This document shows positions 41,743-62,050 of a stretch of 64,000 nt of DNA, one piece after another. Made by a program: the position numbers and the translations under genes. Below the pieces are notes generated by a model. It searched no databases and was not told the origin of the DNA. It saw only the letters and a program-made list of their open reading frames with translations. The stretch is from assembly GCA_964541455.1 (NCBI GenBank), contig CAZIPS010000001.1:1709-65708 (forward strand), in the 5' to 3' direction. The stretch is from an uncultured Candidatus Saccharibacteria bacterium. Its GTDB lineage: Bacteria; Patescibacteriota; Minisyncoccia; Phycocordibacterales; JAKFXT01. Within the stretch, counting starts at the first letter, position 1; the number at the start of each line of letters is the position of its first letter.

Positions 41743-41759
41743 ATCTTTATTGTAAAACT

Positions 41760-42101
41760 ATGGTATTTGATCAAGCACCACATCCTGAAGGGAAGATCTT
41801 TGCGAAACTTGACTGCAGTGAGCAACTTGCAAAAGCAACAAGTCTTCAGGATATGTATGAAGTATTACGAAGTTATCAGTACGTAGTGGGGGACGGTGGG
41901 GAAGTGATTGAGGTAGCATCACTTATTGAAACACTCGAGAAGGTGGCACCAGCTATTTTGAATTTAAAAAGTAATGAGGAGTTTGTGCAAAACTATGGAA
42001 TCTATAGGCAGGCAATAACTGATAATGGGGGCATCTTTACGCACTATATTCGGTTACTAGGAGAGATGACAGGCCGAGTATTTGAAATTCCTTCAGCATA
42101 A
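41760..42101 (+). CDS. hypothetical protein
   Basis: 113-aa ORF in operon context. No motif recognised. Confidence 0.3.
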   Translation: MVFDQAPHPEGKIFAKLDCSEQLAKATSLQDMYEVLRSYQYVVGDGGEVIEVASLIETLEKVAPAILNLKSNEEFVQNYGIYRQAITDNGGIFTHYIRLLGEMTGRVFEIPSA

Positions 42102-42105
42102 AAAT

Positions 42106-42558
42106 ATGGCATTTACAGTATACGTAGCGTCAGATCATGCAGGTTTTGAATTAAAGAATCACTTAGCAGACTATGTAAAGTCACTTGGTTTTACCGTAGT
42201 TGATAAGGGGCCTTTTTCTCTTGATCCACAAGACGATTATCCTGATTATGTGCGACTTGTGGCAGAAGAAGTATTGCGTGATCCTGATGCGACGCGTGGC
42301 ATCATCCTTGGGGGATCGGGCCAGGGAGAGGCTATGGTAGTGAATCGTTATAAGGGAATACGGGCAACGGTATATTATGGAGGAACAGAAGAAATCATCC
42401 GCCTTTCTCGTGAGCACAATAATGCAAACATACTCTCGCTTGGCGCCCGCTTTTTAAATGAGCTCGAAGCAGAAAGTGCTGTCAAAATGTGGCTTGAACT
42501 CCCTTTTAGCAAAGACGAGCGTCATGTTCGAAGAATTGAAAAAATAGATGCACAATAA
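42106..42558 (+). CDS. rpiB: ribose-5-phosphate isomerase B
   Basis: MAFTVYVASDHAGFELKNHLADYVKSLGFTVVDKG. RpiB/LacAB fold. GIILGGSGQGEAMVVNR. The track ORF starts at 42082, but the ATG at 42106 gives the canonical N-terminus. Confidence 0.8.
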   Translation: MAFTVYVASDHAGFELKNHLADYVKSLGFTVVDKGPFSLDPQDDYPDYVRLVAEEVLRDPDATRGIILGGSGQGEAMVVNRYKGIRATVYYGGTEEIIRLSREHNNANILSLGARFLNELEAESAVKMWLELPFSKDERHVRRIEKIDAQ

Positions 42559-43255
42559 TTCAATCGAAATTATTCCAGCGGTCATGCCTCAAAGTTGGGC
42601 AGATATCGAAACGCACGCAGCAGATGTGTCCTCATATGTTGAGCATATACAGCTTGATATTATGGATGGAAAGTTTGTAAAAGAAAAAACATGGCCGTAT
42701 AAAAACGATGAGGGAGAACTGAATCGCGTTATTGCTGAAGAGTTCGGGCTTCCAGAATGGGAAAAGGTGAATTATGAAATAGATCTAATGGTAAGTACTC
42801 CGGATAAAGATGCGCTTACGTGGATTAAAGCTGGAGCCACACGAGTAATACTGCATATTGAAAGCAGTACGACGATTCTCGAAACAATTAAAAAAATTCG
42901 TAGTGAATACGGCACAAAGGAAACTATGGCACTCGCTCCCGAGATTGGCGTGGCAATTGATGTGGCAACACCCCTTAAGGAGCTTGATGTATACATTCCT
43001 CATGTTGATTTTGTGCAGCATATGGGTATTGCTCATATTGGATATCAAGGTGAACCTTTTGCCGAAGAAACATTGTCCCGAGTTAAAACATTGAAGGAGA
43101 AGTATCCGAACCTTATAATCAGTATTGATGGGGCTGTTAACGATGTGTCAGCTCCCAAACTTATTGCTGCTGGTGCTACAAGGTTAGTGTCAGGATCTTA
43201 CTTACTCAAGGCCCCGGACCTCAAAGAAGCAATAGAAACGCTTCAAGGTGTATAG
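42548..43255 (+). CDS. rpe: ribulose-phosphate 3-epimerase family protein (divergent)
   Basis: IIPAVMPQSW...HIQLDIMDGKFV resembles the Rpe HxDxMDGxFVPN motif. C-terminal ISIDGAVN...AAGATRLVSGSYLL resembles the Rpe DGGvn...aGA...vaGSaif. Confidence 0.6.
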   Translation: MHNNSIEIIPAVMPQSWADIETHAADVSSYVEHIQLDIMDGKFVKEKTWPYKNDEGELNRVIAEEFGLPEWEKVNYEIDLMVSTPDKDALTWIKAGATRVILHIESSTTILETIKKIRSEYGTKETMALAPEIGVAIDVATPLKELDVYIPHVDFVQHMGIAHIGYQGEPFAEETLSRVKTLKEKYPNLIISIDGAVNDVSAPKLIAAGATRLVSGSYLLKAPDLKEAIETLQGV

Positions 43256-44129
43256 GAATATGAATTATTTAGCTGATGAAAAAATAGAAGAGATAGCGCT
43301 TAAGGCGAATTCGATTCGCGAGTCGATTATTGAAATGCTTCTTGAGGCAGGTTCAGGCCATACTGCGGGGCCTTTGGGGATGGCAGATATATTCGCAACG
43401 CTCTATTTTCATATACTGCGTCATGATCCCAAAAACCCAAGTTGGGAGAAAAGAGATCGTGTTATTTTAAGTAATGGTCACATTTGTCCCGTGCTCTACG
43501 CTACTATGGCACATGCTGGGTATTTTCCAGTTTCTGAACTCAAGACGCTTCGCAAGTTTGGTTCGCGACTTCAGGGACACCCGCATAAAGAAGCGCTTCC
43601 CGGTCTTGAATCATCCTCAGGGCCACTAGGATCTGGACTTTCTCAGGCTGTTGGGATGGCACTTGCTGATCGTATAGATTTTGGAAGAGCAACAGAAAAG
43701 TTTTTCTACTGTTTTATGGGAGACGGTGAGCTTGATGAGGGGCAAAACTGGGAAGCGATTATGCTTGCCGGAAAGGAGAAACTTCATAATATTATCGCTA
43801 TTGTTGACCGCAATAATATTCAAATAGATGGTTTTACAGAGGACGTGATGCCTCTTGAGTCACTGCGAGCAAAATGGGAGTCATTTAATTGGCATGTTGA
43901 AGAAATTGACGGACACAACGTCACTGCGATTAATGAAGCAATCGGAGAAGCACAATCAGTGTTTGAGAAGCCATCAGTAATTATTGCACACACCATTCCC
44001 GGTAAAGGAGTAGCTGAGTTTGAACATCGTCCTGAGTGGCACGGTAAACCACCAAAGAAGGAAGAGGCCGAAATGGCCCTCCGGGAACTACGAACACTTG
44101 GTGGGAAAATTAAGGCAGAGCATGAGTAA
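43248..44129 (+). CDS. transketolase, N-terminal (TPP-binding) subunit
   Basis: GSGHTAGPLGMADIFATLYF...DRVILSNGHICPVLYA...GSLGQGLS-like GSGLSQAVGMA...GDGELDEGQNWEA. Confidence 0.85.
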   Translation: MYRNMNYLADEKIEEIALKANSIRESIIEMLLEAGSGHTAGPLGMADIFATLYFHILRHDPKNPSWEKRDRVILSNGHICPVLYATMAHAGYFPVSELKTLRKFGSRLQGHPHKEALPGLESSSGPLGSGLSQAVGMALADRIDFGRATEKFFYCFMGDGELDEGQNWEAIMLAGKEKLHNIIAIVDRNNIQIDGFTEDVMPLESLRAKWESFNWHVEEIDGHNVTAINEAIGEAQSVFEKPSVIIAHTIPGKGVAEFEHRPEWHGKPPKKEEAEMALRELRTLGGKIKAEHE

Positions 44130-44427
44130 TATGAAATTAAGCGAACCTATTAAACCGTTATTGTTACTGCAGGGAGTGTTGATCCTAGAACTACTCTTTG
44201 TAGGTATTCTTTATTTTAAGAAAACATCGGGAGGCAATGGAGCAGCACTTGGTATTGGTTTGTTATATTTTTCTCCGGTTTTTCTCTATACCTCATTAAG
44301 ATATCTTTTTACTTTTTATAAAACCAAACAACAGGGAGGGGTCACTTTTTTTGATAAACTGTTTCTCATACTGGCACTTGTTTTCTTGGTGATAGTTCTT
44401 GTATTACTTGGTAAACTATTTGTGTAA
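44122..44427 (+). CDS. small hydrophobic protein (~101 aa, 3 TM) between the split transketolase genes
   Basis: ATG at 44122 overlaps the tktN stop. The track ORF 44020..44427 is a frame extension into tktN. Sequence MSNMKLSEPIKPLLLLQGVLILELLFVGILYF... Confidence 0.35.
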   Translation: MSNMKLSEPIKPLLLLQGVLILELLFVGILYFKKTSGGNGAALGIGLLYFSPVFLYTSLRYLFTFYKTKQQGGVTFFDKLFLILALVFLVIVLVLLGKLFV

Positions 44428-44433
44428 AAAGTT

Positions 44434-45414
44434 ATGCTCATTTCTACGTTAAATCAAAAGGTGTTCGATAAAGATGTGGAGCAGTTGCCTATCCGCAAAG
44501 GTTTTGGAGAAGGCCTTGTTGACGCTGGGAAAAATGACGAGAGAATAGTGGGACTTTGTGCTGATCTTACAGAGTCGACGACCATGCATCTTTTTAAAAA
44601 AGAGTTTCCTAACCGTTTTGTGGAGATTGGCATTGCTGAGCAGAACTTAGCTTCAGTTGCGTCCGGTATGGCGGCAATGGGGAAAATAGCTTTTGTTTCT
44701 TCTTACGCTATGTTTAGTCCTGGGCGTAATTGGGAGCAAATCCGTACTACTGTTTGCTATAACAACAGTAATGTCAAAATTGCAGGCAGTCACGCGGGAG
44801 TGTCAGTTGGACCAGATGGGGCAACACACCAAGCGGTTGAAGATATGGCCATAACAAGGGTGCTCCCTAACATGATAGTGGTGTCACCTTGCGATATGCT
44901 CGAGGCGAAGAAGGCAACGCTTGCGCTAGCTCAATTACCAAGTCCAGCCTATCTTCGTCTTGCGCGTGAGCCAACTCCAGTCATGACTACTCCTGAAACA
45001 CCGTTTCAGATTGGGAAAGCGCAGGTTTTCTGGGATTCTGAAAATCCAAAGGCAACTATTATCGCAACGGGGGCACTTGTTCATAAGGCTCTAGTTGCTG
45101 CAAAAGAACTAGAGAAAGAGGGAACAGAAGTAGTGGTAGTGAACCTTTCAACTATAAAGCCACTTGATACCCAAACGATTCTTCGTGAGGTCCAAAGATC
45201 AGGACGAGTGGTGACTGTGGAGGAGCATCAAATTGCGGGAGGTATGGGAAGCGCAGTTGCAGAATATCTTTCGAAGGTGTATCCAGTACCGATTGAGTAT
45301 ATAGGAGTACAAGATGAATTTGGTCAGTCTGGAACCCCAGAGGAACTCATCGAACATTATGGTATGGGGGTAAGTCACATTAAGGCGGCAGTGGGGAAGG
45401 TGATAAAAAGATAG
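44434..45414 (+). CDS. transketolase, C-terminal (pyrimidine-binding) subunit
   Basis: FVEIGIAEQNLASVASGMAAMG...AGSHAGVSVGPDGATHQAVEDMA. C-terminal domain. Confidence 0.85.
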   Translation: MLISTLNQKVFDKDVEQLPIRKGFGEGLVDAGKNDERIVGLCADLTESTTMHLFKKEFPNRFVEIGIAEQNLASVASGMAAMGKIAFVSSYAMFSPGRNWEQIRTTVCYNNSNVKIAGSHAGVSVGPDGATHQAVEDMAITRVLPNMIVVSPCDMLEAKKATLALAQLPSPAYLRLAREPTPVMTTPETPFQIGKAQVFWDSENPKATIIATGALVHKALVAAKELEKEGTEVVVVNLSTIKPLDTQTILREVQRSGRVVTVEEHQIAGGMGSAVAEYLSKVYPVPIEYIGVQDEFGQSGTPEELIEHYGMGVSHIKAAVGKVIKR

Positions 45415-45440
45415 TATTTAAAATTCGATAATGATTGAAA

Positions 45441-45474
45441 ACAAAAAACTCCCTTAAGGGAGTTTTTTGTTTTC
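45441..45474. terminator. bidirectional rho-independent terminator (tkt / pfkB convergent)
   Basis: acaaaaaactccc-ttaa-gggagttttttgtttt. Confidence 0.75.
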
Positions 45475-45477
45475 TTG

Positions 45478-46473
45478 TTATTCGGTAATTTTCTGTGGCT
45501 TGTAATTTGCGGGGGCGTGTGCAAGATAGTTTTCCAAGTCACCACGCTTTAAGAGCCCTTTTTGTGCTCCTACTTCTTGTACCACGGACATAGAGTTAAT
45601 AGGTCCCCACATAAGCGCTTCGTCTAGACTTTTTCCAAGGGCAAGGGCTGAAGTAAGTGTTGACGCAAAGGCGTCTCCTGCACCTGTTCGCTCATAAGGG
45701 GGTTTTGGGTCTGGATAAGGTGGCATAAACCATGCTTCACTTCCATCATAAGCATAAGCGCCACGAGGTCCATCGGTAATGACAATTGTTTTTGGCCCCT
45801 CCTCACGCATGAGGCGAAGTAGCTTCCCAACATTTTTCTCCTCTGTGCCTAACATCCTTTGTGCCTCTTCGACATTGCAGAAGAAAATTTCAGTGTGTTG
45901 GTAGAGTTCACGTAATTTGGCAAATCCTAGTTTCATTTGAAAGGTGCCCGGTTGGAAGGCAAGTTTTGTTTCAGGGTGACTTTTTAGAAACTCGATGATT
46001 TCGTGGTGATAGGGAAGTGATTGTTCCCCAACTGAACTAAAGTAGAGCCATTTTGGGTTCCCTACATCAGGAAAAGAGTAGGGGTAGTCAAAATGCTTGA
46101 GAAGAATGGTGCGATCATCCTCAAACCACAATACGTAGTGGTAGTTACTTTTCATACCGTCATGAAGCGATACAAAAGAAGTATCTACACCATTTCCTTT
46201 AAGCGCGGCAATTGAATCGTTCGCAATATCATCATTACCAAGGTCGGTGACAAGGGCCGTCTTAAGTCCAAGCCGGGCTGCAGAAACTGCAGCATTTGGG
46301 CTATTCCCCACAGCACTTATAACTTCTACAAACTCATAAGGGATCTTGTCTCCAAAGCGCATGCACAATTCACAATTATCGTGGTCTACTTTGCAGTGGA
46401 CTTTGGCATCTTTAAGTCGAATAAAAGCGTCAGTTACTATGTCCCCAATAGCAACAAAATCGAAGTTTTGCAT
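45478..46473 (-). CDS. PfkB-family carbohydrate kinase (ribokinase-like)
   Basis: N-terminal FDFVAIGDIVTDAF. C-terminal anion-hole motif GAGDAFASTLTSALALG. Substrate not assignable. Confidence 0.75.
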   Translation of the reverse strand: MQNFDFVAIGDIVTDAFIRLKDAKVHCKVDHDNCELCMRFGDKIPYEFVEVISAVGNSPNAAVSAARLGLKTALVTDLGNDDIANDSIAALKGNGVDTSFVSLHDGMKSNYHYVLWFEDDRTILLKHFDYPYSFPDVGNPKWLYFSSVGEQSLPYHHEIIEFLKSHPETKLAFQPGTFQMKLGFAKLRELYQHTEIFFCNVEEAQRMLGTEEKNVGKLLRLMREEGPKTIVITDGPRGAYAYDGSEAWFMPPYPDPKPPYERTGAGDAFASTLTSALALGKSLDEALMWGPINSMSVVQEVGAQKGLLKRGDLENYLAHAPANYKPQKITE

Positions 46474-46532
46474 ATGCAGAAAATTATAACATGTGTCGCT
46501 TACGGACTTTTGGAATATGTTAATATGTAGCT

Positions 46533-47396
46533 ATGGTTAAAACACTTAAAGAGACTGTCTATGATGCGAAAGCGCGTAAGGTGGCAGTGGGGCATTTCAA
46601 TATTAGTAACTTAGAAGGATTGTGGGCCATATTCCGTGCAGGACAAAGTTTGGGCGTACCAGTTATTATCGGGGTTTCGGAAGGAGAGCGAGATTTTATC
46701 GGGATTCCACAGGTAGTAGCCTTGGTGCGAAGTATCCAGAAAGAGTTTGACTACCCCATATACCTTAACGCAGACCACACCTACTCTTTTGAGCGCGTAA
46801 AAGAAGTTATTGATGCAGGCTTTGATTCGGTTATCTTTGATGGGGCGAAACTTCCTTTTGAAGAAAATGCGCGCATTGCAAAGCAGTGTGTAGATTACGC
46901 ACGTGCCTCGGGGCGCGAGATTATGGTTGAGGCAGAGCTTGGCTATATCGGGACTTCTTCAAAGATACTTGATGACATTCCTGAAGGGGTGTCACTTGAG
47001 AATCTGACAACAGCAGAGGAAGCAAAGCGTTTTGTGGAGGAAACAGGGATTGATTTTTTTGCACCCTCGGTTGGTAATATTCATGGCATGCTTCGCAATG
47101 TAAAAGACCCTCGGTTGAACATTCCACGGACAAAAGAAATTAGTGAAGCGACTAATGTCCCCCTCGTGCTCCATGGAGGGTCGGGCACGGTGGACGAAGA
47201 TTTTGTAGGAGTTATTGAAAATGGGGTAGCGATTGTACATATAAACACTGAAATAAGAGTTGCATATCGAGACGCACTTAAGAAATTCTTAGCAGAAAAC
47301 CCCGATGAGGTAGCGCCTTATAAAATAATGAAGCCAGCTCTCGAAGCGATGCAGGAAACGGTAACTGCGCGCTTGAAGCTGTTTAATAAACTTTAA
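46533..47396 (+). CDS. fba: class II fructose/tagatose-bisphosphate aldolase
   Basis: AVGHFNISNLEG...PVIIGVSEGE...LNADHT...IHGM...LHGGSG are class II aldolase metal/phosphate-binding blocks. Confidence 0.8.
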   Translation: MVKTLKETVYDAKARKVAVGHFNISNLEGLWAIFRAGQSLGVPVIIGVSEGERDFIGIPQVVALVRSIQKEFDYPIYLNADHTYSFERVKEVIDAGFDSVIFDGAKLPFEENARIAKQCVDYARASGREIMVEAELGYIGTSSKILDDIPEGVSLENLTTAEEAKRFVEETGIDFFAPSVGNIHGMLRNVKDPRLNIPRTKEISEATNVPLVLHGGSGTVDEDFVGVIENGVAIVHINTEIRVAYRDALKKFLAENPDEVAPYKIMKPALEAMQETVTARLKLFNKL

Positions 47397-51962: not shown

Positions 51963-53006
51963 ATGAATAAAAGATTTTTTTTGCTAGGCATACCACTCCT
52001 CTTCTCCTTCTTATTTATTGTTGATATGTATGTGGGGGAAACTCGCTCGCCTGGTACTTCTTCAGAGGTTGCTTTCAGCTCATTTTCTCCAGTGGGCGAG
52101 GGAGGAGGTAGTTCGCTTCCTGCATCATGTGAATCGAATTACCAGCACGACGCCTCTGATTGTACGGTTTCTGTAAGTGCAAGTCCGAATCCTATTACTA
52201 CACCTGGAGGGGACACCACAAAACTTTCATGGACGTTTAACCAATATGGACCTAGTACAGGATATATGACAAGTTATCTTGCTGGTGGGTGGTACTGGGA
52301 CCAATTTATGTCACCTTATTCTTGCACAATTACAGGCCCTGGAGGAAAAACAGTATTTATGAACGGGGCAGTTACGGGTAGTATGGATACCCCAGTTTTG
52401 ACGGATGATACTACATACCAAGTTACTTGCCGATCACTTGAGAATGCTCCACATCCTCAATACAACTATTACGATTATCCTTCTGGACCATACACTGTTC
52501 GTGTTTCTGTACCAAAGCAGTGTTCTTGTAATTCAGTACCTAATAGTTGTGGTATGACTAACCCAGGACTCATTAGGTGTGGTAGCACTGCAGCCTGTCC
52601 AGTACCTGCTCCAAATGATAATGTATGCGCGAATCCTGCCATCTCGATTGGTCTTCCAGGTGGAACCCCCGTAACGACTGGCGGCCCAACGGGAGGCACT
52701 CCTTCTGGGGGAGGTACTCCAACAACAGGAACTACTCCTACTGACCCTCCCGTATATGATCAAACAGTACCTAAAGGTGGAACGTGTACTATACAGTGGG
52801 ACGCCGCTCCAGCCACCAAATGTAGGATTACGGGCCCTGGAGTAAGTCAGAATGTAGGAGTGTCGGGGACTTTCACGACTCCAAGAATAGGGGTAGATAC
52901 TGTAGGATCGGCAATGTTTACTCTCACTTGCTACAATGGAAATACCGTTGCTTCATATGCAAACTTCGCCTGCCGCCTCCCTGCAATTATTAAGGAAACT
53001 AACTAG
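51963..53006 (+). CDS. secreted Cys/Thr/Gly/Pro-rich hypothetical protein
   Basis: Signal/anchor MNKRFFLLGIPLLFSFLFIV. At least 14 Cys. Low-complexity linker TGGPTGGTPSGGGTPTTGTTPTDPP. Two C/T-rich modules. Confidence 0.45.
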   Translation: MNKRFFLLGIPLLFSFLFIVDMYVGETRSPGTSSEVAFSSFSPVGEGGGSSLPASCESNYQHDASDCTVSVSASPNPITTPGGDTTKLSWTFNQYGPSTGYMTSYLAGGWYWDQFMSPYSCTITGPGGKTVFMNGAVTGSMDTPVLTDDTTYQVTCRSLENAPHPQYNYYDYPSGPYTVRVSVPKQCSCNSVPNSCGMTNPGLIRCGSTAACPVPAPNDNVCANPAISIGLPGGTPVTTGGPTGGTPSGGGTPTTGTTPTDPPVYDQTVPKGGTCTIQWDAAPATKCRITGPGVSQNVGVSGTFTTPRIGVDTVGSAMFTLTCYNGNTVASYANFACRLPAIIKETN

Positions 53007-54463: not shown

Positions 54464-54892
54464 ATGGTAGTTACCTACCTTTTCTTTGTTTCGCTCCTCG
54501 GTATCATTGTACTCCTTTCACTTAAGGTGTGGGAATTGAAGCGAGGATCAAAACCTTTTTCTCTTTTTCGGTATAAACTTGACCTTGTCATGAGGCGATA
54601 TACTGATAGGCTTAAGCACTACGCTTCTTTTTTAAATACCAAAGCATTGCGCCTTGTTCTGGCCTATGTGGTAGCGCGTGTAAGTCAGGGGGTGAGTAAT
54701 ACAGTGGTTAAACTTAAGAACACCACCTTTTTTAAAAAGGTACGGGGTAAGATTATTCCAGATAGTCATAATTCTCCTGTTTCGGCATTTCTTCGTGATG
54801 TTGCAGAGTTTAAAAGCGCTGCAGCTGGAGAAAAGCCCGCCGTACTTGAGGAGGAGTTGAATAAAGTTCAAAAAGATAGTACAAATAGCTAA
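54464..54892 (+). CDS. hypothetical protein with N-terminal TM helix
   Basis: 142-aa ORF. No motif. Confidence 0.3.
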   Translation: MVVTYLFFVSLLGIIVLLSLKVWELKRGSKPFSLFRYKLDLVMRRYTDRLKHYASFLNTKALRLVLAYVVARVSQGVSNTVVKLKNTTFFKKVRGKIIPDSHNSPVSAFLRDVAEFKSAAAGEKPAVLEEELNKVQKDSTNS

Positions 54893-54894
54893 TT

Positions 54895-54967
54895 GCCACC
54901 TTAGCTCAGTTGGTAGAGCAACTCACTTGTAATGAGTAGGTCCCCAGTTCAAGCCTGGGAGGTGGCT
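54895..54967 (+). tRNA. tRNA-Thr (anticodon UGU)
   Basis: Cloverleaf: acceptor gccacct/aggtggc, D-arm gctc-agttggtag-agc, anticodon arm actca-cTTGTAa-tgagt (anticodon TGT), T-arm cccag-ttcaagc-ctggg. No encoded CCA. Confidence 0.8.
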
Positions 54968-54977
54968 CAGAAATTTA

Positions 54978-55019
54978 TATAAGTGTACCATTTGTAGGCC
55001 TGCAAATGGTACACTTATA
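54978..55019. repeat. perfect 17-bp inverted repeat (8-bp spacer) between tRNA-Thr and the HNH gene
   Basis: tataagtgtaccatttg-taggcctg-caaatggtacacttata. No adjacent U-run, so not a canonical terminator. Overlaps the first in-frame ATG (55006) of the HNH ORF. Confidence 0.7.
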
Positions 55020-55023
55020 CCAT

Positions 55024-55461
55024 ATGAATAAATGTATTTCTTGTAATAAAGAGCTTCTATTACGGCACCAACAGAAATATTGTTCAAATAAGTGTCAGAA
55101 TGATCAGCAATTTAATCAATATATAAAAGATTGGAAGCAGGGTAAAAAAGATGGGAATAGGGGAATTATTGCTAAAAACATATCCCGCCATATTAAGAGA
55201 TATCTGATCGAGAAATACGGTGAGCGTTGTTCTAAGTGTTTTTGGAATTGTAGAAATAAGAAAACTAAGATTGTTCCTCTAGAGATAGATCATATAGACG
55301 GGATAGCTGAAAATAATCAAGAATCAAATTTGAGATTATTATGCCCAAATTGCCACTCACTTACGTTTACATTTAGAAATTTAAATTTTGGTAATGGAAG
55401 GTTTTGGCGTAAAGAAAAATATATAAAAAATAATGTGAAGCAAATAAGTAGTAATCCTTGA
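55024..55461 (+). CDS. free-standing HNH endonuclease
   Basis: N-terminal Cys4 (CISC...CSNKC) and C-terminal HNH motif EIDHIDG...NLRLLCPNCHS. GC about 32%, below genome average. Start taken at 55024 (MNKCISC); the track ORF starts at 55006 inside the palindrome. Confidence 0.6.
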   Translation: MNKCISCNKELLLRHQQKYCSNKCQNDQQFNQYIKDWKQGKKDGNRGIIAKNISRHIKRYLIEKYGERCSKCFWNCRNKKTKIVPLEIDHIDGIAENNQESNLRLLCPNCHSLTFTFRNLNFGNGRFWRKEKYIKNNVKQISSNP

Positions 55462-55539: not shown

Positions 55540-56841
55540 TTGTTCATGGCTCAACCTGAAGAAGCACATAACTCACCTACTATTTTCCCAAAAGGGTTTC
55601 TTTGGGGATCGGCCACCTCTTCTCATCAGGTAGAGGGGAACGTGCAAAATGACTGGATAGCTTGGGAAAAGGAACATGCTGCACGCTTAGCTAGCGAAGC
55701 AAAAAATAAATGGGCGTCATGGCAACAAAAAAAGTTTCCTGAAATGTTTAATATTGAAAACTATATTTCAGGGGAAGGTTGCGATCAATTTAATCGCTAT
55801 GAAGAGGACTTTGATTTGGCCAAAAACTTGGGACACAATGCTCATCGCTTTTCTATAGAATGGTCTCGCATTGAACCAGAAGAAGGTGAATTTAATATGG
55901 AGGCAATTGAGCACTATCGAAATGTTCTTCTTGCCTTAAAAAGTCGAGGGCTAGAACCTTTTGTAACACTTTGGCATTGGCCTAATCCTATATGGATAGG
56001 GCAAATGGGGGCGTGGGAGAATAAAAAGACAGTGACTTATTTCCTGCGCTATGCTGAACGCATGTTACGTGAGTATAAGGATCTAGTTACTTTTTGGGTA
56101 CCACTGAATGAGCCGGGGACTGAAGTGTCGCTTGGATATTTATTTGGCAATCAGCCACCCGGGCTTAAAAGTAGTGTTGCAGCAAATAAGGCGTTCAAGA
56201 ATCTGATGGAAGTTCAAAGGGGGACGTATGCGCTCGCCAAATCCATTAACGCTAATTTCAATGTGGGTTGTTCACATTTTATGTTTTATTGGCGGCCGTA
56301 CAATAAGTTACCTTGGAATATTTTAGCTTCTAAAATAATTGGCTACTTTGCCGACCGAAGGTTTTTTAAGGTATTCAACGACTATAGTGATTTTTTCGGA
56401 GTCCAATACTACCAACCCTTTTTTGTGAATTTAAAAATCGGAGGGAAATTCAAGGGTATACTTGAAAATAAACAGATAAATGAAGAGCAGAGTGATTTGG
56501 GTTGGCAGATATTTCCTGAGGGTATATATCATGTATTAAAAAAGGCTGCGAAAGGAGGGAAGCCGATTTATATAACTGAAAACGGTATTGCAGATAAAGA
56601 CGATAGTATGCGCGGTAAATTTATCAAAGAACATCTTTATTGGGTAAATCGGGCTATTAAGGACGGTGTAGATATACGCGGTTATTTCTATTGGTCGCTT
56701 ATAGATAATTTTGAGTTTGTGGAATTACGTGGTTTTTGGCCACGCTTTGGACTTATTGAAGTTGACTACAAAACCAAGAAACGCACCATTCGACCTTCAG
56801 CATACGCATATCGCGATATAATAAAACAGTCACTTATATGA
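55540..56841 (+). CDS. GH1-family beta-glucosidase
   Basis: N-terminal GH1 signature FPKGFLWGSATSSHQVEGN. Acid/base LNEP. Nucleophile ITENG. Confidence 0.85.
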   Translation: MFMAQPEEAHNSPTIFPKGFLWGSATSSHQVEGNVQNDWIAWEKEHAARLASEAKNKWASWQQKKFPEMFNIENYISGEGCDQFNRYEEDFDLAKNLGHNAHRFSIEWSRIEPEEGEFNMEAIEHYRNVLLALKSRGLEPFVTLWHWPNPIWIGQMGAWENKKTVTYFLRYAERMLREYKDLVTFWVPLNEPGTEVSLGYLFGNQPPGLKSSVAANKAFKNLMEVQRGTYALAKSINANFNVGCSHFMFYWRPYNKLPWNILASKIIGYFADRRFFKVFNDYSDFFGVQYYQPFFVNLKIGGKFKGILENKQINEEQSDLGWQIFPEGIYHVLKKAAKGGKPIYITENGIADKDDSMRGKFIKEHLYWVNRAIKDGVDIRGYFYWSLIDNFEFVELRGFWPRFGLIEVDYKTKKRTIRPSAYAYRDIIKQSLI

Positions 56842-57746
56842 TAGACGGCAGCGCTATTTTCTTTCTTTCAATACTACTCGTTTGTTTAGGGCAGCTTGGT
56901 AATGCGCTTATTGTGCTTGTTGATAAGCATATTGTCACCAATACTTCGGTGACGCGTCCTGGAGTCTATGCTTTTTTTGTAAGTATTATTTCTGGAGCGG
57001 TGGTTGTATTACTTCCTTTTGGGGTAGTGCATATGCCGAGCCCTATGACGATTTTCCTTTCTCTTGATTTGGGGTTTATTTTTATAGGTTCTATTATTCT
57101 TCTGTATCGGGCGCTTAAACACGCTAATGCAACAGATGTGATTGCATGGCTTACTGCCATTTCAACACTCTCCACTTTTATTTTTGCGGCTCTTTTTCTC
57201 GATGAGACATTACCAAAAACTTTTCCCTTAGCACTTTTTTTCATTCTTGTCGGCATGCTTCTTGTTGGGCATTTTAGATTCTATGCTCGCTCTTTTAAGC
57301 AGGTGGTTGGTTCGGGAGTACTTTTTGGACTTTCGGTAGTCATGCTCAAGTTACTTTTTTCACAAATCTCATTTGTGGATGCCTTTTTCTGGTCACGTAT
57401 GGGTAATGTGGTAGCGGCACTTTCTCTGCTACTTTTCCCTTCGATTCGCAAACATCTTTTTACTATAAGCCGCAATACTTCACACCAAACAGGGTTACTC
57501 ATTGTTGGAAACCGTATTTTGGGGGGAGTAGCATTTCTAAGTGTGCTCTATGCACTCAAGTTGGGTTCTGCTTCAATTGTGAATGCACTCTCGTCACTTC
57601 AGTTCGTGTTTATCTTTGTACTTATTTTTGTATTTAGACGTTTTGTACCAGAGCTGTATCGTCATGAGTTTCGCAAGGGGCACGTGCTTCATAAGGTGGC
57701 AGCGATGTGTTTTATTATCATGGGATTCTTTATATTATTTGCATAA
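56838..57746 (+). CDS. polytopic membrane protein, DMT/EamA-like transporter candidate
   Basis: 302 aa with about 10 TM helices in two 5-TM halves. Confidence 0.35.
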   Translation: MIDGSAIFFLSILLVCLGQLGNALIVLVDKHIVTNTSVTRPGVYAFFVSIISGAVVVLLPFGVVHMPSPMTIFLSLDLGFIFIGSIILLYRALKHANATDVIAWLTAISTLSTFIFAALFLDETLPKTFPLALFFILVGMLLVGHFRFYARSFKQVVGSGVLFGLSVVMLKLLFSQISFVDAFFWSRMGNVVAALSLLLFPSIRKHLFTISRNTSHQTGLLIVGNRILGGVAFLSVLYALKLGSASIVNALSSLQFVFIFVLIFVFRRFVPELYRHEFRKGHVLHKVAAMCFIIMGFFILFA

Positions 57747-57758
57747 TATCTTTAATCT

Positions 57759-58757
57759 ATGTTGAAGCGAAGTATTAAAATTGTCCTCTATACTTTGCTG
57801 GTGCTAATAATTGTTGGGGGAGTACTTTCTTACCGTAAAAAACCAACAACTATTACTTACGGAGTTTCTTTTAGTAAGTTTCATGCAGACGAGCTTAAGC
57901 TTCCTTGGGCGATTGTTTTTGAAGCTTTGGTCTCTGAAATGCAGGTTAAACATTGGAGACTTTCAGCGCATTGGCCAATGGTTGAATCCACCAAAGGGGT
58001 ATTTTCTTTTAATGAGTTAGATTACCAACTACGACGAGTAAAGGAAGAACATGGAGACGTGGTGCTTGCAGTTGGGCGTCGTCTTCCGGGGTGGCCAGAA
58101 TGTCATGTGCCAGAGTGGGCAAAAGGTCTCTCGTGGGAGGATCAAAAGAAGGAGATTCTCACCTATCTTACAAAGGTAGTTGAGCGCTACAAAGACCATA
58201 GTGAAGTACTTTATTGGCAAGTTGAAAATGAACCGTATCTTACAGTATTTGCCCATGATTATTGCGGTGATCTTGATAAGGATTTTCTTAAAGAAGAGGT
58301 TGCTCTAGTAAAACGTCTTGATCCATCGCGCAAAGTACTCGTTACTGATAGTGGGAACCTCGGTCTGTGGAGTGGTGCGTGGAGTACAGGGGATATATTT
58401 GGTACAAGTATGTACTTATATCTTTGGAATCCAAACTTCGGTCAAGTTAAAACTATCTACCAGCCATTTGTGTATCGTATCAAAAACAATATGATGTCGC
58501 TTTTATTTGGAAAGCGTGAAAGTCTGCTCATTGAATTATCGCTTGAGCCATGGCTTGTGCACCCAATCACTGAAACCCCTCTTTCTGTTCAGAAAGAACG
58601 CATGACCCCGACAATGTTTGATGAGGCGGTCGCCTTTGCCAAAGATACTCGTTTTGAAAAGCAGTATCTTTGGGGAGCGGAATGGTGGTTTTATATGAAG
58701 CAGCAGGGAGACGGCACGTATTGGGAAAAAGCCAAGGCAATATTTGCTCCAAAGTAA
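57759..58757 (+). CDS. membrane-anchored putative glycoside hydrolase (clan GH-A TIM-barrel-like)
   Basis: N-terminal TM anchor. YWQVENEPY is a clan GH-A acid/base NEP motif. LIELSLEPW is a possible nucleophile region. Confidence 0.35.
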   Translation: MLKRSIKIVLYTLLVLIIVGGVLSYRKKPTTITYGVSFSKFHADELKLPWAIVFEALVSEMQVKHWRLSAHWPMVESTKGVFSFNELDYQLRRVKEEHGDVVLAVGRRLPGWPECHVPEWAKGLSWEDQKKEILTYLTKVVERYKDHSEVLYWQVENEPYLTVFAHDYCGDLDKDFLKEEVALVKRLDPSRKVLVTDSGNLGLWSGAWSTGDIFGTSMYLYLWNPNFGQVKTIYQPFVYRIKNNMMSLLFGKRESLLIELSLEPWLVHPITETPLSVQKERMTPTMFDEAVAFAKDTRFEKQYLWGAEWWFYMKQQGDGTYWEKAKAIFAPK

Positions 58758-58817
58758 TACATAGATTTATGAGGGCTTTTTTGCTAAAGTGGGGCACCAA
58801 GAGGGGGAAGTGAGACT

Positions 58818-60350
58818 ATGGAATATGTAAAAACACCGTATTTTAAAGTGGGAAGGGCGAGTGAGCTTTCAGGTGCTGACTATGTCCTTTATCGTTTTTT
58901 GGAAATGTTGCCAGGGCTTCTTTCTTGGGCAACACTCCTTTTTGTGGTAGTGATGTCATTTGTGCGACCCGTGCTTGCAGCGTACTTTATTATCGCTTTC
59001 GATCTTTATTGGCTCCTTAAGACGGTGTATCTTTCAATACACTTACGTCACAACTTTAAGCGTATTACGTACAATCTTTCGGTTAATTGGAATGAGCGTT
59101 TACAGAAATTAAAATATGAGCATGTTACGCATCTTATTTTGTTACCTTTTTATAAAGAAGGCTACGAGGTGGTGAAGGTATGTCTCGAGGGGCTTAAAAC
59201 AACACATTACGATACTAAAAAGTTTTTGATCGTGCTTGGAACAGAGGAGCGTGCGGGAAGTGAGGCGCAGGAAGTAGCACGAAATATTGAAGCAGCATAT
59301 AAAGATTATTTTGGTGGCTTTCTAATTACGACGCACCCTAAAGATGTGCCGGGTGAAATGGCGGGAAAGGGTTCAAATATTGCGTACATGGCTGAAGAAG
59401 CCAGAAAGCTCCTGATTGATAAAGGAAGCATTTCTTATGAAGAAGTGATGGTGTCTGCTTTTGATATCGATACAGTAGTGTATCCTGATTACTTTGCTTG
59501 TCTTACATGGTACTTCCTCACTGTGCGTGATCCTTACAAGACGTCGTATCAACCCGTGCCTTTCTACAATAACAATATTTGGAATGCACCAATGATTTCC
59601 CGTGTTGTTGCGGGCTCTTCGACATTCTGGCAAATGATGCAGCAGGAGCGCCCTGAGAAACTTGCAACATTTTCATCTCACTCAGTACCTTTTAAAACAC
59701 TTTACGAAATTGGGTATTGGCAAAAGAATATGGTGTCTGAAGATTCACGTATCTATTGGAACTTACTTTTGGCGCATGATGGTGATTATCGTGTTACGCC
59801 ACTGTCTTATCCAGTATCAATGGATGCCAATGTTGCAGCAACCTTTTGGCAAACAGTAAAAAATGTTTATAAACAGCACCGTCGTTGGATGTATGGGGTG
59901 GAGAACCTTCCTTATATATTTTTTGGATTTATTAAAAATAAAAAGATACCTTTTTGGACGAAGCTTCGAGTAGGGGCGGTGCAGCTTGAGGGATTTTGGT
60001 CGCTTGCCACCAACCCCATTATGATATTCCTTTTGGGCTGGTTACCAGTGATGGTGGGGGGGTCTATTTTTAACAAATCACTCCTTTCATACAACCTTCC
60101 AATTTTAACTCGTAACATTATGACGATTGCTATGGCAGGACTTATTCTTTCCGCAATTATTTTCCTTTCTTTTGTGCCTAAGAAACCTGATGAAAAAGTA
60201 AGAACATCGAAGATGGGAATGGTACTACAGTGGGTATTAGTACCTTTTACTATTATCACTTTTGGTGCACTTCCTGGACTTGATTCCCAAACACGTCTTA
60301 TGCTTGGGAAGTATATGGGATTTTGGGTTACCCCAAAACGTCGCGATTAA
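58818..60350 (+). CDS. processive GT2 beta-glycosyltransferase, cellulose/chitin-synthase-like
   Basis: Two N-terminal and at least four C-terminal TM helices flank a GT-A domain with K-G-S-N (KAGNxN-like), DxD (FDIDT), SEDSR (TED-like) and the hallmark QxxRW (KQHRRWMYG). Confidence 0.65.
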   Translation: MEYVKTPYFKVGRASELSGADYVLYRFLEMLPGLLSWATLLFVVVMSFVRPVLAAYFIIAFDLYWLLKTVYLSIHLRHNFKRITYNLSVNWNERLQKLKYEHVTHLILLPFYKEGYEVVKVCLEGLKTTHYDTKKFLIVLGTEERAGSEAQEVARNIEAAYKDYFGGFLITTHPKDVPGEMAGKGSNIAYMAEEARKLLIDKGSISYEEVMVSAFDIDTVVYPDYFACLTWYFLTVRDPYKTSYQPVPFYNNNIWNAPMISRVVAGSSTFWQMMQQERPEKLATFSSHSVPFKTLYEIGYWQKNMVSEDSRIYWNLLLAHDGDYRVTPLSYPVSMDANVAATFWQTVKNVYKQHRRWMYGVENLPYIFFGFIKNKKIPFWTKLRVGAVQLEGFWSLATNPIMIFLLGWLPVMVGGSIFNKSLLSYNLPILTRNIMTIAMAGLILSAIIFLSFVPKKPDEKVRTSKMGMVLQWVLVPFTIITFGALPGLDSQTRLMLGKYMGFWVTPKRRD

Positions 60351-60353
60351 TAT

Positions 60354-61247
60354 ATGGACCCTCTTTCACGTAAAAAAAGAATAACGTATTTTATTTTCTT
60401 TAGTATCGTTTTTTTTGCGGTGGTGCCCTTATTCATTTTCTATGCTCAGGGGTATCGATTTAATTTAAAAGATGTAGTCAAAGTTTCTGAAACAGGGGGG
60501 CTTTATGTAAGTACTGATCAGTCAGGGATTGAGATTTATGTGAACAATGTACTTGAGAAAAAAACAAGTATCATTCAAAAAACAGTCTTTGTACAAGATC
60601 TTCGTCCGGGGACATATGATATACGCGTATCTAAAAATGGTCTCCAAACATGGAGCAAGCGTCTTAAGGTGTTTCCTGAGCTTGTAACCGAAGCGCGTAC
60701 ATTCCTCATTAAAGATCATCCAGAATTAGTTTCTATTCCTTTGTATCTCTCTCAAGCGACGAGTACAGGAAGTAGTGTTGCTACAACTACCAAAAAAGCA
60801 GTCAAGAATCCTGAATACATGCTTGCACTTAAGGCATTCATGACACCACTTTCAACTGCTCCTACCACCACCAAAAAAGTTGCCTCAACTACGGATGAAT
60901 TTTTGCCTGTACAAAAGTTAGTGTTTGAAAATACTCATGGAGTACTCATCGCAACATGGAAGGGTGAGCAGGATGCTATACCAAGTTATTTCTGTGAAAA
61001 CACTGTGTGCAAATCTAGTATTGAAGTTAAAGCAGGGGGTCCGGTGCTTGCGTATGATCTGTTTCCAGGACGTGATGATCTACTCATCGTGCAACTAGCC
61101 AAGGGGGTGTATGTTGTAGAAATTGATGATCGGTCTCCACAGAATAAGGAAACAATTGTTGAGGGAGAGGGTTATGAGTTTCGTATCAAAGAAAGCGGGG
61201 TACTTTACTTGAAACACGGAGTCGATATCTATAGTGTGGCGCTTTAA
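60354..61247 (+). CDS. membrane-anchored PEGA-domain protein
   Basis: N-terminal TM helix. IYVNNVLEKKTS...LRPGTYDIRVSKNGLQTWSKRLKV matches the PEGA consensus (P-x-G-x-Y-x-V-x-V-x-K-x-G-Y). Confidence 0.45.
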   Translation: MDPLSRKKRITYFIFFSIVFFAVVPLFIFYAQGYRFNLKDVVKVSETGGLYVSTDQSGIEIYVNNVLEKKTSIIQKTVFVQDLRPGTYDIRVSKNGLQTWSKRLKVFPELVTEARTFLIKDHPELVSIPLYLSQATSTGSSVATTTKKAVKNPEYMLALKAFMTPLSTAPTTTKKVASTTDEFLPVQKLVFENTHGVLIATWKGEQDAIPSYFCENTVCKSSIEVKAGGPVLAYDLFPGRDDLLIVQLAKGVYVVEIDDRSPQNKETIVEGEGYEFRIKESGVLYLKHGVDIYSVAL

Positions 61248-61264: not shown

Positions 61265-62050
61265 ATGGCCTTATTCGGCTATAATACGCACATGACTGCT
61301 CAAAATACAGAAGGAACAGAGGGGAAGGGGCACCTGCACCCAATAACGCTTATGCAGCGCGACATTGCGCGTATTTTTCGTGGACTAGGATTTGCTGTTG
61401 CTGATGGGCCGGAAATAGAGACCGAGTTCTATAACTTTGATGCACTTAATATTCCTGAGTGGCACCCAGCGCGTGATATGTGGGATACCTTTTGGCTTAA
61501 ACCGCTTAATGCACGGAAATTGCTTCGTACCCACACAAGTCCTGTGCAGATCCGCTACATGCAGAGTCACAAGGACAAAATGCCAATCGCTATGGTAACT
61601 CCTGGCAAGGTGTATCGTCACGAAGCAACTGACGCTACACACGAAGCTCAGTTTTATCAGTTAGAAGGGCTTATGGTAGGAGAGGGAGTGTCACTTGCTC
61701 ACTTTAAGGGAGTGCTCGAGCATTTCTTTAAAGAATTTTTTGGGGTACCAGTAGCTATCAGACTTCGCCCTAGTTATTTCCCATTTGTGGAGCCGGGTGT
61801 TGAAGCTGATGTAACGTGTGTGAAGTGTGAAGGTCGTGGTTGCACTGTTTGTAAGAATACCGGATGGATAGAACTTATGGGGGCTGGCATGGTCCATCCT
61901 AAAACACTTGAAGCTGGTGGTATTGATCCTCGTAAGTACACAGGGTTTGCCTTTGGCATGGGATTAGACCGTTTGGGGGTTATAAAGTACGGTATCCCCG
62001 ATGTCAGGCTTCTCTACCAGGGAGATCTTCGTTTGGTTAACCAGTTTTAA
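61265..62050 (+). CDS. pheS: phenylalanine--tRNA ligase alpha subunit (short form, catalytic core only)
   Basis: Class II motifs: motif 1 region HPITLMQRDIARIF, motif 2 FYNFDALNIPEWHPARDMWDTFWL, motif 3 GMGLDRLGVIKYGIPDVRL. 261 aa, lacks the usual N-terminal coiled-coil extension. Confidence 0.85.
   Translation: MALFGYNTHMTAQNTEGTEGKGHLHPITLMQRDIARIFRGLGFAVADGPEIETEFYNFDALNIPEWHPARDMWDTFWLKPLNARKLLRTHTSPVQIRYMQSHKDKMPIAMVTPGKVYRHEATDATHEAQFYQLEGLMVGEGVSLAHFKGVLEHFFKEFFGVPVAIRLRPSYFPFVEPGVEADVTCVKCEGRGCTVCKNTGWIELMGAGMVHPKTLEAGGIDPRKYTGFAFGMGLDRLGVIKYGIPDVRLLYQGDLRLVNQF

Follow-up and report, generated by a model that had tools for sequence, protein, structure and literature searches.

A conserved PilZ-less membrane glycosyltransferase of Paceibacteria-type Patescibacteria as a candidate processive beta-glycan synthase, with a PEGA-domain neighbor and a separable glycoside hydrolase cassette

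Bacterial and plant beta-glucan synthases carry an FxVTxK motif as the signature of their gating loop, and this motif is kept together with KAG and QxPH in BcsA, CrdS, and BgsA (PMC6821405). Its spelling varies, being FAVTAK in the BcsA of Cereibacter and FNVTLK in a mixed-linkage glucan synthase of Romboutsia (PMC10374906). In monoderm bacteria, the clostridial ccs cluster combines a synthase with CcsZ, a GH5 hydrolase of 340 amino acids (aa) held by an N-terminal transmembrane (TM) anchor, and with CcsB, which is extracellular and bound to the membrane (PMC7710045). PgaC requires the small membrane protein PgaD (PMC8461298). Mycoplasma species possess stand-alone, PilZ-less beta-glucan synthases with six TM helices, which have the motif set of the enzyme described below (PMC11658790). 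Here, we analyzed a stretch of 64,000 nucleotides (called the window) from an uncultured bacterium deposited as Candidatus Saccharibacteria (GenBank assembly GCA_964541455.1, contig CAZIPS010000001.1, positions 1,709 to 65,708 of the forward strand). It encodes a membrane glycosyltransferase of family 2 (hereafter, the GT2) followed by a gene for an anchored PEGA-domain protein. On balance, we lean toward the view that the GT2 is a processive beta-glycan synthase-translocase of the stand-alone, PilZ-less kind, that the PEGA protein is its lineage-specific partner, and that an independent cassette for beta-glycoside uptake lies beside them.

The sequence-only reading of this DNA had proposed a single exopolysaccharide locus of five genes. 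The five open reading frames (ORFs) are present, all on the + strand, with intergenic gaps of -4 to 60 bp:

58818 to 60350, + strand: membrane GT2, 510 aa (Glyco_trans_2_3, PF13632, E 2e-8)
59463 to 59471, + strand: DxD motif D216-I-D218 of the GT2, by alignment with DADH/DCDH of BcsA
59736 to 59744, + strand: TED-type motif S307-E308-D309 of the GT2, by alignment with TED of BcsA and PgaC
59874 to 59888, + strand: QxxRW motif Q353-H-R-R356-W357 of the GT2, on an interface helix, by alignment with QRIRW (BcsA) and QRLRW (PgaC)
60321 to 60338, + strand: FxVTxK motif F502-W-V-T-P-K507 of the GT2, 3 residues before the stop codon
60354 to 61247, + strand: anchored PEGA-domain protein (PF08308)
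55540 to 56841, + strand: GH1 beta-glycosidase, cytoplasmic, cassette gene 1 (PF00232, E 1e-80; no hydrophobic segment)
56838 to 57746, + strand: EamA/DMT transporter, cassette gene 2 (PF00892, E 4e-9; ~10 hydrophobic segments)
57759 to 58757, + strand: anchored clan GH-A hydrolase, cassette gene 3 (AlphaFold2 [AF2] fold and Foldseek; TM residues 4 to 27)

The earlier domain calls (GH1, a 10-TM transporter, an anchored GH-A-like hydrolase, a membrane GT2, and PEGA) all held in Pfam and hydropathy analyses. The grouping into one locus did not: the GH1-EamA-GH-A cassette is absent from 65 of 80 loci compared, lies on either side of the GT2-PEGA pair, and occurs elsewhere in other Patescibacteria contigs, at the loci that we number L086 to L088. 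The 80 loci (L001 to L080) came from species-representative genomes with 58 to 78% GT2 identity, in which ORFs were called and searched with the window proteins. Their ancestral gene order is prfA, rpsB, tsf, a small TM protein, tRNA-Thr(UGU), GT2, PEGA, and pheS. The region is thus made of two separable modules, an ancestral GT2-PEGA pair (module A) and an accessory, movable GH1-EamA-GH-A cassette (module B).

The GT2 scored 34.6 bits against PF13632 (cutoff, 27) and contains D216-x-D218, S307-E-D309, and Q353-xx-R356-W357, the DxD, TED-like, and QxxRW motifs already listed in the sequence-only reading, all of which are kept in its homologues. Among 54 family representatives sharing 24 to 60% identity, D216, D218, D309, Q353, R356, and K507 are fully invariant and W357 is conserved in at least 90%; D309 is the predicted catalytic base. 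K507 falls within G-F-W-V-T-P-K (residues 501 to 507), of which FWVTPK is fully kept in close homologues and becomes FxVTEK in the wide-family consensus. In the E. coli reference proteins, the tail motif is spelled FNVTAK (BcsA) and RWVSPDR (PgaC). KAG and QxPH are only approximated in the GT2, which has K184-G-S-N for KAGN and, with a one-residue insertion, Q245-P-V-P-F for QTPHF. The predicted architecture comprises two N-terminal TM helices, a GT-A domain at about residues 100 to 340, interface helices bearing QxxRW (amphipathic helices are predicted at 343 to 373), about four C-terminal TM helices, and the FxVTxK tail, a topology in which the GT domain and the C-terminal tail are both cytoplasmic. 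Pfam detected no PilZ domain in the GT2, as had been suspected, and the protein ends at residue 510, 3 residues past FxVTxK; control by c-di-GMP of the BcsA type is therefore absent.

The family is large. We found more than 7,000 homologous clusters at 90% identity, the best 120 of which all have ~510 aa and are 62 to 98% identical, and a HMMER search of 1.84 billion representatives returned 445 clusters at 50% identity with an E value of ≤1e-30 and 2,364 with an E value of ≤1e-3. These thousands of full-length homologues exclude a chance or annotation artifact. Relatives of the GT2 were confirmed in at least 369 species-representative genomes (one genome per species); since the scan relied on two exact peptide patterns, this figure is a minimum. 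The closest homologues of the genes of the locus all belong to metagenome bins of Patescibacteria (CPR) of the Paceibacteria (Parcubacteria) type, namely, Lloyd-, Zambryski-, Taylor-, Kaiser-, and Nomurabacteria.

To place the GT2 among known enzymes, BcsA, PgaC, NodC, OpgH, and ArnC were taken from annotated records and compared with the family profile by hhalign. Profile-profile scores were used instead of a tree with BcsA, CrdS, NodC, HasA, and chitin synthases, since identities are below 20% and reference sequences are few:

E. coli BcsA: 97.3% (E 2e-11)
E. coli PgaC: 96.4% (E 1e-9), over 340 columns, through the TM region to the C-terminal tail
S. meliloti NodC: 87.4% (E 4e-6)
E. coli OpgH: 6% (E 0.0062)
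E. coli ArnC, a polyprenyl-phosphate GT2: 3.5% (E 0.012)
DPMS-like GT2 of the window (8945 to 9904): 2.1% (E 0.023)

This distribution supports the assignment of the GT2 to the membrane-integrated processive synthases rather than to the nonprocessive GT2 enzymes, in line with what its motifs had suggested at the outset. PDB sequence searches with the single GT2 and with a profile of close homologues gave no match. The wide profile retrieved, and only weakly, just BcsA chains (E 0.01 to 0.05), followed by the archaeal mannosyltransferase PcManGT (6yv7, E 0.053); the blocks P-x-Y-x-E, K-x-G-N, D-x-D, and Q-x-x-R-W line up properly. None of the NCBIfam cellulose-synthase models was matched at an E value of ≤0.1. 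The sole curated family match was PgaC_IcaA (TIGR03937, E 1.7e-6), with 27.2 bits versus a cutoff of 422.3. As the GT2 reaches no curated cutoff, it is a member of neither named equivalog.

The match to PgaC_IcaA raises the question of whether the GT2 polymerizes N-acetylglucosamine (GlcNAc) into a PNAG-like, chitin-like, or chito-oligosaccharide product. We regard this as unlikely, yet it is a serious rival because the architecture of the GT2 is PgaC-like. Besides the hhalign match, which spans the TM region and the tail, a plasmid tblastn search found pgaC alone, if marginally (E 0.05 to 0.2), and 11 of the 54 family members showed weak Chitin_synth_2 matches. Furthermore, MurB is encoded in the window, so peptidoglycan is made and UDP-GlcNAc should be available. 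Conversely, the TIGR03937 score lies far under its cutoff, the exact FxVTxK and the RWxxG context after QxxRW match glucan synthases, and BcsA tops the hhalign ranking. The locus contains no CE4 deacetylase or PgaB/IcaB-like gene, and no member of the CE4 deacetylase (PgaB/IcaB) or PgaD families was found among the GT2 neighbors. The ED motif also differs: its GxDR(H)L form, seen as GEDRHL in S. meliloti NodC and present in hyaluronan synthases (HAS) and chitin synthases as well, is absent from the GT2, which has SEDSR.

We then compared the conservation of the GT2 with that of its neighbors in the 34 genomes that contain all six genes. The median identities from all-against-all comparisons were as follows:

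GT2: 61.0%
prfA: 58.6%
pheS: 57.1%
tsf: 56.7%
rpsB: 49.8%
PEGA: 30.4%

These values must be read with the choice of loci in mind, since picking them by GT2 similarity may inflate the conservation of the GT2, a bias that the all-against-all design lessens without removing; the ranking was unchanged when identities were measured against the window. GT2 identity exceeded that of rpsB in all genome pairs and that of prfA in 73% of pairs. The GT2 equals RF1 and EF-Ts in conservation, whereas the PEGA protein evolves fast, which is common among exposed surface proteins. In our judgment, it is unusual for a membrane glycosyltransferase to evolve like a release factor, and this speaks for a function that is core and not optional.

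Extreme conservation would also fit a role in membrane homeostasis, and QxxRW occurs in GT21-type processive glycolipid synthases too. The GT2 could accordingly be imagined to make a glycolipid of the membrane or a lipid-linked oligosaccharide, for instance, as a processive transferase of the glycosyl-diacylglycerol or ceramide type that acts on lipids scavenged from a host, but we consider this very improbable. Glyco_transf_21 was matched by none of the 54 members, and the profile comparison revealed no similarity to polyprenyl-phosphate GT2s, neither to ArnC nor to the DPMS-like GT2 of the window. The six TM helices, the interface helices, and the gating-loop motif are the signature of channel-forming synthases, whereas the GT2 glycolipid enzymes of Mycoplasma are devoid of TM domains (PMC11658790). 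A gene for a polyprenyl-phosphate sugar-phosphate transferase (PF00953) does adjoin two distant family members, but in only two of the four contexts of that subfamily, and for this reason a link to lipid-linked wall polymer synthesis was dropped. In this distant, N-terminally extended subfamily, the PF00953 gene (MraY/WecA-type) is next to the GT2 gene and is followed by rplU in L083 (7773 to 8774) and L084 (4675 to 5748); it is absent from L094 and L095.

The second member of module A, the PEGA protein, matches PF08308 at residues 48 to 113 (E 5e-5, 23.6 bits versus a cutoff of 20.8) and has an N-terminal TM anchor (residues 8 to 34). Its gene starts 3 bp past the GT2 stop codon, and a public contig of 91 kb encodes a protein 100% identical to it. 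In the 76 loci with at least 1 kb of room, a PEGA gene was found directly 3' of the GT2 gene 63 times, mostly with a gap of 0 to 40 bp or a small overlap. The PEGA protein is a conserved partner of the GT2 and probably an operonic one. The partnership proposed earlier stood in this positional respect, but the protein is not a homologue of BcsB, to which no match was found. Nor is it a universal partner of the GT2: PEGA is limited to the Paceibacteria-type clade, and the neighbors of the distant L081, L083 to L085, L094, and L095 share no family. An alignment of 14 homologues displayed the TM anchor, a conserved G-Y-R, the PEGA beta-sandwich, a variable Ser/Thr-rich linker, and a C-terminal domain. 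This last domain (residues ~190 to 297) belongs to no known family and contains the invariant C214 and C219 and an invariant GxYxxEIDDRxxQN; in distant members, the linker is 80 to 100 residues longer, and an insertion of 80 to 100 residues falls between the two cysteines. The anchors of the PEGA protein and of the GH-A hydrolase follow basic residues, so the bulk of both proteins should lie outside the cell. Judging from its position and topology, the PEGA protein would receive, bind, or organize the polymer.

Our preferred reading of module A, a PilZ-less synthase-translocase working with the PEGA protein, would operate as follows. The cytosolic GT-A domain would bind a UDP-sugar via D216, D218, and a divalent cation, and D309 would deprotonate the acceptor hydroxyl. 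W357 of QxxRW would stack against the terminal sugar at the entrance to a channel of ~6 TM helices, and the FxVTxK tail may fold over the bound nucleotide sugar as a gating loop. Inverting transfer would create a beta-linkage, and the homopolymer would be pushed across the single membrane by one sugar per step. The donor is most likely UDP-glucose, which would give a beta-glucan; we favor glucose as the monomer because of the motif spelling and of the precedent of the stand-alone beta-glucan synthases of Mycoplasma (PMC11658790). At the cell surface, the polymer would be taken up, bound, or organized by the anchored PEGA protein, whose gene would be cotranscribed. In this scheme, the domains, the motifs, the fold class, the synteny counts, and the conservation are observed, and we infer the processivity, the donor sugar, the linkage, and the role of the PEGA protein.

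Several observations weigh against this reading, in addition to the choice of loci and the Chitin_synth_2 matches already mentioned. The architecture and the C-terminal tail of the GT2 resemble those of PgaC, a GlcNAc polymer synthase, as much as those of BcsA. The best PDB matches of the AF2 model of the GT2 in Foldseek were hyaluronan synthases and BcsA (E 1.6e-8 to 1e-6), ahead of soluble or monotopic GT2s, but the TM-score to these solved synthases was only ~0.45. The model itself has a pLDDT of 74.5, with values below 50 for the last 50 residues, so the placement of the gating-loop tail over the active site derives from motif homology alone. The PEGA gene is missing from 13 of the 76 loci and from the distant GT2 subfamilies, so it is not an obligatory partner; in L025, L035, and L046, pheS directly follows the GT2 gene, which establishes that the PEGA gene can be absent. 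Moreover, dense packing and near-uniform gene direction prevail throughout these genomes, and adjacency of co-directional, tightly packed genes is therefore weak evidence of a common function. Lastly, we found no description of the GT2 family in the literature on Patescibacteria, Parcubacteria, and CPR.

Because the GT2 equals RF1 and EF-Ts in conservation and has a fixed place in a neighborhood of translation genes, its product more probably belongs to the core envelope of these Paceibacteria-type cells than to an optional biofilm matrix. One may go a step further and suggest, tentatively and with doubt prevailing, that the GT2 makes a novel core cell-envelope beta-glycan of Paceibacteria-type Patescibacteria. 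This glycan would be a second, non-peptidoglycan wall or surface polymer, made by a single minimal synthase that evolves no faster than the translation machinery and handed over by a fast-evolving PEGA protein of the surface, and it might mediate attachment to host cells. The synthase would then represent the smallest natural architecture of the cellulose-synthase type, in which six TM helices are followed by a C-terminal tail that is the gating loop and a regulatory domain is lacking.

Module B behaved differently from module A. GH1-EamA-GH-A was present in 15 of the 80 loci, each time as an intact triple in the same order. In nine loci, as in the window, the cassette stands between tRNA-Thr and the GT2 gene, and in the other six it stands between the PEGA gene and pheS. 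It never splits the GT2-PEGA pair, which suggests that the pair is kept together and leaves room for a functional link. An intact triple without a GT2 gene within 6 kb was found in L086, L087, and L088, which encode distant GH-A homologues. In all 18 contexts, the EamA gene lies between the GH1 and GH-A genes. The features that frame the cassette and the pair in the window are listed here:

54464 to 54892, + strand: small membrane protein, 142 aa (ORF; one hydrophobic segment at residues 1 to 26, without Pfam match)
54895 to 54968, + strand: tRNA-Thr (UGU), by ARAGORN
55006 to 55461, + strand: HNH endonuclease gene, 151 aa (Pfam HNH, E 2.8e-5)
61265 to 62050, + strand: pheS (ORF; housekeeping backbone that bounds the locus)

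One explanation of the five-gene arrangement is an integrated system in which the GT2 makes the polymer, the GH-A enzyme is a processing hydrolase of the BcsZ/CcsZ/PslG type, the PEGA protein acts like BcsB, and EamA and GH1 recycle oligosaccharides. The five genes are indeed co-directional and closely spaced, and a cassette flanking GT2-PEGA without splitting it in 15 genomes is unlikely by chance among 700 to 1,000 genes. The clostridial ccs cluster provides a monoderm precedent (PMC7710045), and PslG, the hydrolase of the Pseudomonas Psl exopolysaccharide system, was the second-best structural match of the GH-A enzyme. We nevertheless judge the integrated system improbable. The cassette is lacking at 65 of the 80 GT2 loci, the GH-A clusters amount to at most ~40% of the number of GT2 clusters, and the intact cassette exists without a nearby GT2 gene in L086 to L088. 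In the window, it lies directly 3' of a conserved tRNA-Thr and beside an HNH gene. Mobile DNA often integrates at tRNA genes, so the position of the cassette may reflect where an insertion landed rather than its function. To account for both arrangements, one ancestral insertion and one local rearrangement in a single clade are enough.

The tRNA-Thr(UGU) gene was detected in 43 of the 44 loci scanned, nearly always just upstream of the GT2 gene or of the inserted cassette. HNH homologues occupy the window position in only 3 of the 80 loci (L018, L021, and L025), and the HNH gene is probably a selfish or homing insertion at the tRNA site. These occurrences suggest that the 3' side of tRNA-Thr is a recurrent insertion site, and a tRNA-adjacent site together with a single-clade origin can explain the adjacency of the cassette without a functional link.

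The GH1 enzyme probably starts at the ATG at 55546 and not at the TTG at 55540, and the start of the EamA gene overlaps its stop codon by 4 bp. Both catalytic motifs are present, NEP at residues 190 to 192 (E191) and TENG at 346 to 349 (E347). The score against the beta-glucosidase equivalog TIGR03356 was 291.9 versus a cutoff of 478.5, and gluco-, galacto-, or manno-specificity is possible. The EamA protein is a putative importer of sugars or oligosaccharides.

Sequence comparisons placed the anchored hydrolase less clearly. Its Pfam match to GH42 (E 2e-8) covers only residues 130 to 176, the matches to GH10, GH2, and GH5 are weaker and under their cutoffs, and its PDB sequence matches have E values of ≥1e-3. 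The AF2 model (pLDDT of 90) displays an eight-stranded (beta/alpha)8 barrel, in which N157-E158-P159 follows strand 4 (150 to 155) and E259 (LIELS) lies in strand 7 (254 to 261); both glutamates are invariant in 17 homologues. Foldseek returned 909 matches at an E value of ≤0.001, and almost all of the best 50 are clan GH-A glycoside hydrolases. The top matches (E ~1e-10, TM-score ~0.5) were a GH5 exo-beta-1,4-mannosidase, then PslG, GH42 beta-galactosidases, and GH10 xylanases, and matches with equal E values spread over GH5, GH39-like, GH42, and GH10 structures. According to the model, the hydrolase has the true TIM barrel of clan GH-A and carries both catalytic glutamates (acid/base and nucleophile), as its NEP motif had led the sequence-only reading to propose, and not a TIM barrel of another kind. 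As no CAZy family was matched convincingly, it may represent a new clan GH-A family. The family counts 2,830 clusters, and every match with a taxon name is from Patescibacteria. It has an invariant P-x-W-P-E-C-H-x-P-x-W block (residues 110 to 120) and a second invariant cysteine, C169; the cysteines could form an extracellular disulfide.

Taken as an independent uptake cassette, module B would work by cutting, import, and hydrolysis: the extracytoplasmic GH-A enzyme would cut a beta-glycan, EamA would import the fragments, and the cytoplasmic GH1 would free the monosaccharide for glycolysis. This is the simplest reading because the cassette encodes a glycanase that faces outward together with a DMT-type transporter and a cytoplasmic GH1. 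The direction of transport and the substrate are what we infer here, the latter being a beta-linked gluco-, galacto-, or manno-configured glycan that may be environmental, host derived, or the cell's own polymer. Inserted beside module A at the tRNA-Thr site, module B would possibly, but not necessarily, trim or recycle the polymer of module A. Since the cassette is separable from GT2 loci, the BcsZ-like or recycling role suggested earlier is possible and not required, and CcsZ and PslG are better monoderm analogues than BcsZ. The window also contains a block of central sugar metabolism (40711 to 47396) with genes of glycolysis and of the pentose phosphate pathway, namely, GAPDH, RpiB, ribulose-phosphate epimerase, a transketolase in two genes (43248 to 44129 and 44434 to 45414), a PfkB-family kinase, and a class II aldolase; this block fits a fermentative cell able to use imported glucose.

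The window has ~41% G+C, and nearly all of its genes are on the + strand and tightly packed. The locus is surrounded by prfA, rpsB, tsf, tRNA-Thr, and pheS, the latter being next after the PEGA gene or the GT2 gene in 60 of the 80 loci. A scan for promoters and terminators gave no more sites than in shuffled sequence and none between the genes. Upstream of the GT2 gene, between tsf and tRNA-Thr/GT2, an iterative HMM search found a homologue of the 142-aa TM protein in 53 of the 80 loci. This protein has a charged tail and no detectable relation to PgaD, and the tRNA gene separates it from the GT2 gene; that it might be a PgaD/IcaD-like small partner of the synthase is pure speculation. A 347-aa secreted or anchored protein (51963 to 53006), rich in Cys, Thr, Gly, and Pro and without Pfam family, was found in 4 of the 80 loci and is probably a lineage-specific surface protein. 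Several public records that show the Paceibacteria-type synteny are labeled Syntrophaceae, Patiriisocius, Peregrinibacteria, or Saccharibacteria (L004, L076, L002, and many "Candidatus Saccharibacteria" TPA records among L001 to L080). Such labels probably reflect misbinned contigs or generic names.

A second, unrelated glycan system is encoded at 425 to 29652 of the window, in a surface-glycan cluster of the Wzx/Wzy type. The cluster contains an RmlD-like reductase, at least five GT4 genes, many SAM methyltransferases, a GtrA-like protein, the DPMS-like GT2, two asparagine-synthase-like genes, a GDP-mannose 4,6-dehydratase, a GT8, a KpsF-like SIS/CBS isomerase, a Polysacc_synt flippase, and a 729-aa Wzy_C/O-antigen-ligase protein fused to TPR repeats. 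Four of its ORFs (13077 to 14903, 14903 to 16318, 22255 to 23724, and 24464 to 25303, encoding 608, 471, 489, and 279 aa, respectively) had no Pfam match at an E value of ≤1e-4 or 1e-5.

Patescibacteria (CPR) are a huge, almost wholly uncultivated radiation of tiny, often episymbiotic bacteria whose cell surface is poorly understood. The main interest of the GT2 lies in a minimal cellulose-synthase-like enzyme with extreme conservation and fixed synteny across such a large uncultivated radiation and in its C-terminal gating-loop architecture. If the GT2 exports a beta-glycan, this core surface polymer could be stained, digested, or targeted in order to study or enrich the cells. For structural work, the enzyme would then also serve as a model processive synthase-translocase that is very compact and free of regulators, and the PEGA domain would be placed in a concrete functional setting. 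Organisms of minimal metabolism may have in the GH-A/EamA/GH1 cassette a compact module for feeding on beta-glycans.

Compared with BcsA, the GT2 shares a GT-A core with the D, DxD, ED, and QxxRW motifs and an exact FxVTxK; it only approximates KAG and QxPH. However, the gating loop of BcsA is followed by TM7, TM8, and PilZ, whereas the GT2 ends 3 residues after FxVTxK; it has ~6 TM helices instead of 8, the sequence identity is ~14%, and its locus contains no genes for BcsB, BcsC, or the GH8 enzyme BcsZ. With PgaC/IcaA, the GT2 has in common two N-terminal TM helices, the GT domain, TM helices in the C-terminal part, a short tail in the cytosol with TRxML...WV[ST]PxR, and a similar total size (441 versus 510 aa). 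The tail of PgaC (TRVMLM...RWVSPDR) is related to that of the GT2 (TRLMLG...FWVTPKR), QTRLMLGKYMGFWVTPKRRD, and both proteins end there, but the tail motif of the GT2 is spelled as in glucan synthases and genes for PgaD, PgaB, and PgaA are lacking. From its motifs and predicted topology, the GT2 thus appears to combine a PgaC/IcaA-like minimal architecture with the motif spelling of glucan synthases. It is an uncharacterized family inside the processive GT2 superfamily, set apart from BcsA by PilZ, BcsB, TM7 and TM8, and the curated model and from PgaC by the curated cutoff, PgaB, and PgaD.

The clostridial ccs cluster (CcsA, CcsB, and CcsZ) resembles the window in its synthase, its TM-anchored clan GH-A hydrolase of ~330 to 340 aa, and its anchored, extracellular, beta-rich protein. 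It differs in that the hydrolase of the window shares a mobile cassette of three genes with a transporter and a GH1 and is lacking at most GT2 loci, and in that the PEGA protein is unrelated to CcsB or BcsB. The GsmA-type beta-1,6-glucan synthases of Mycoplasma, which we liken to the GT2 by description only, are single-protein, PilZ-less, synthase-dependent systems of reduced genomes. They are strain-variable capsule genes without a PEGA partner, whereas the GT2 is core, syntenic, and very conserved. By this comparison, the GsmA-type synthases offer what we see as the best functional analogy for the GT2.

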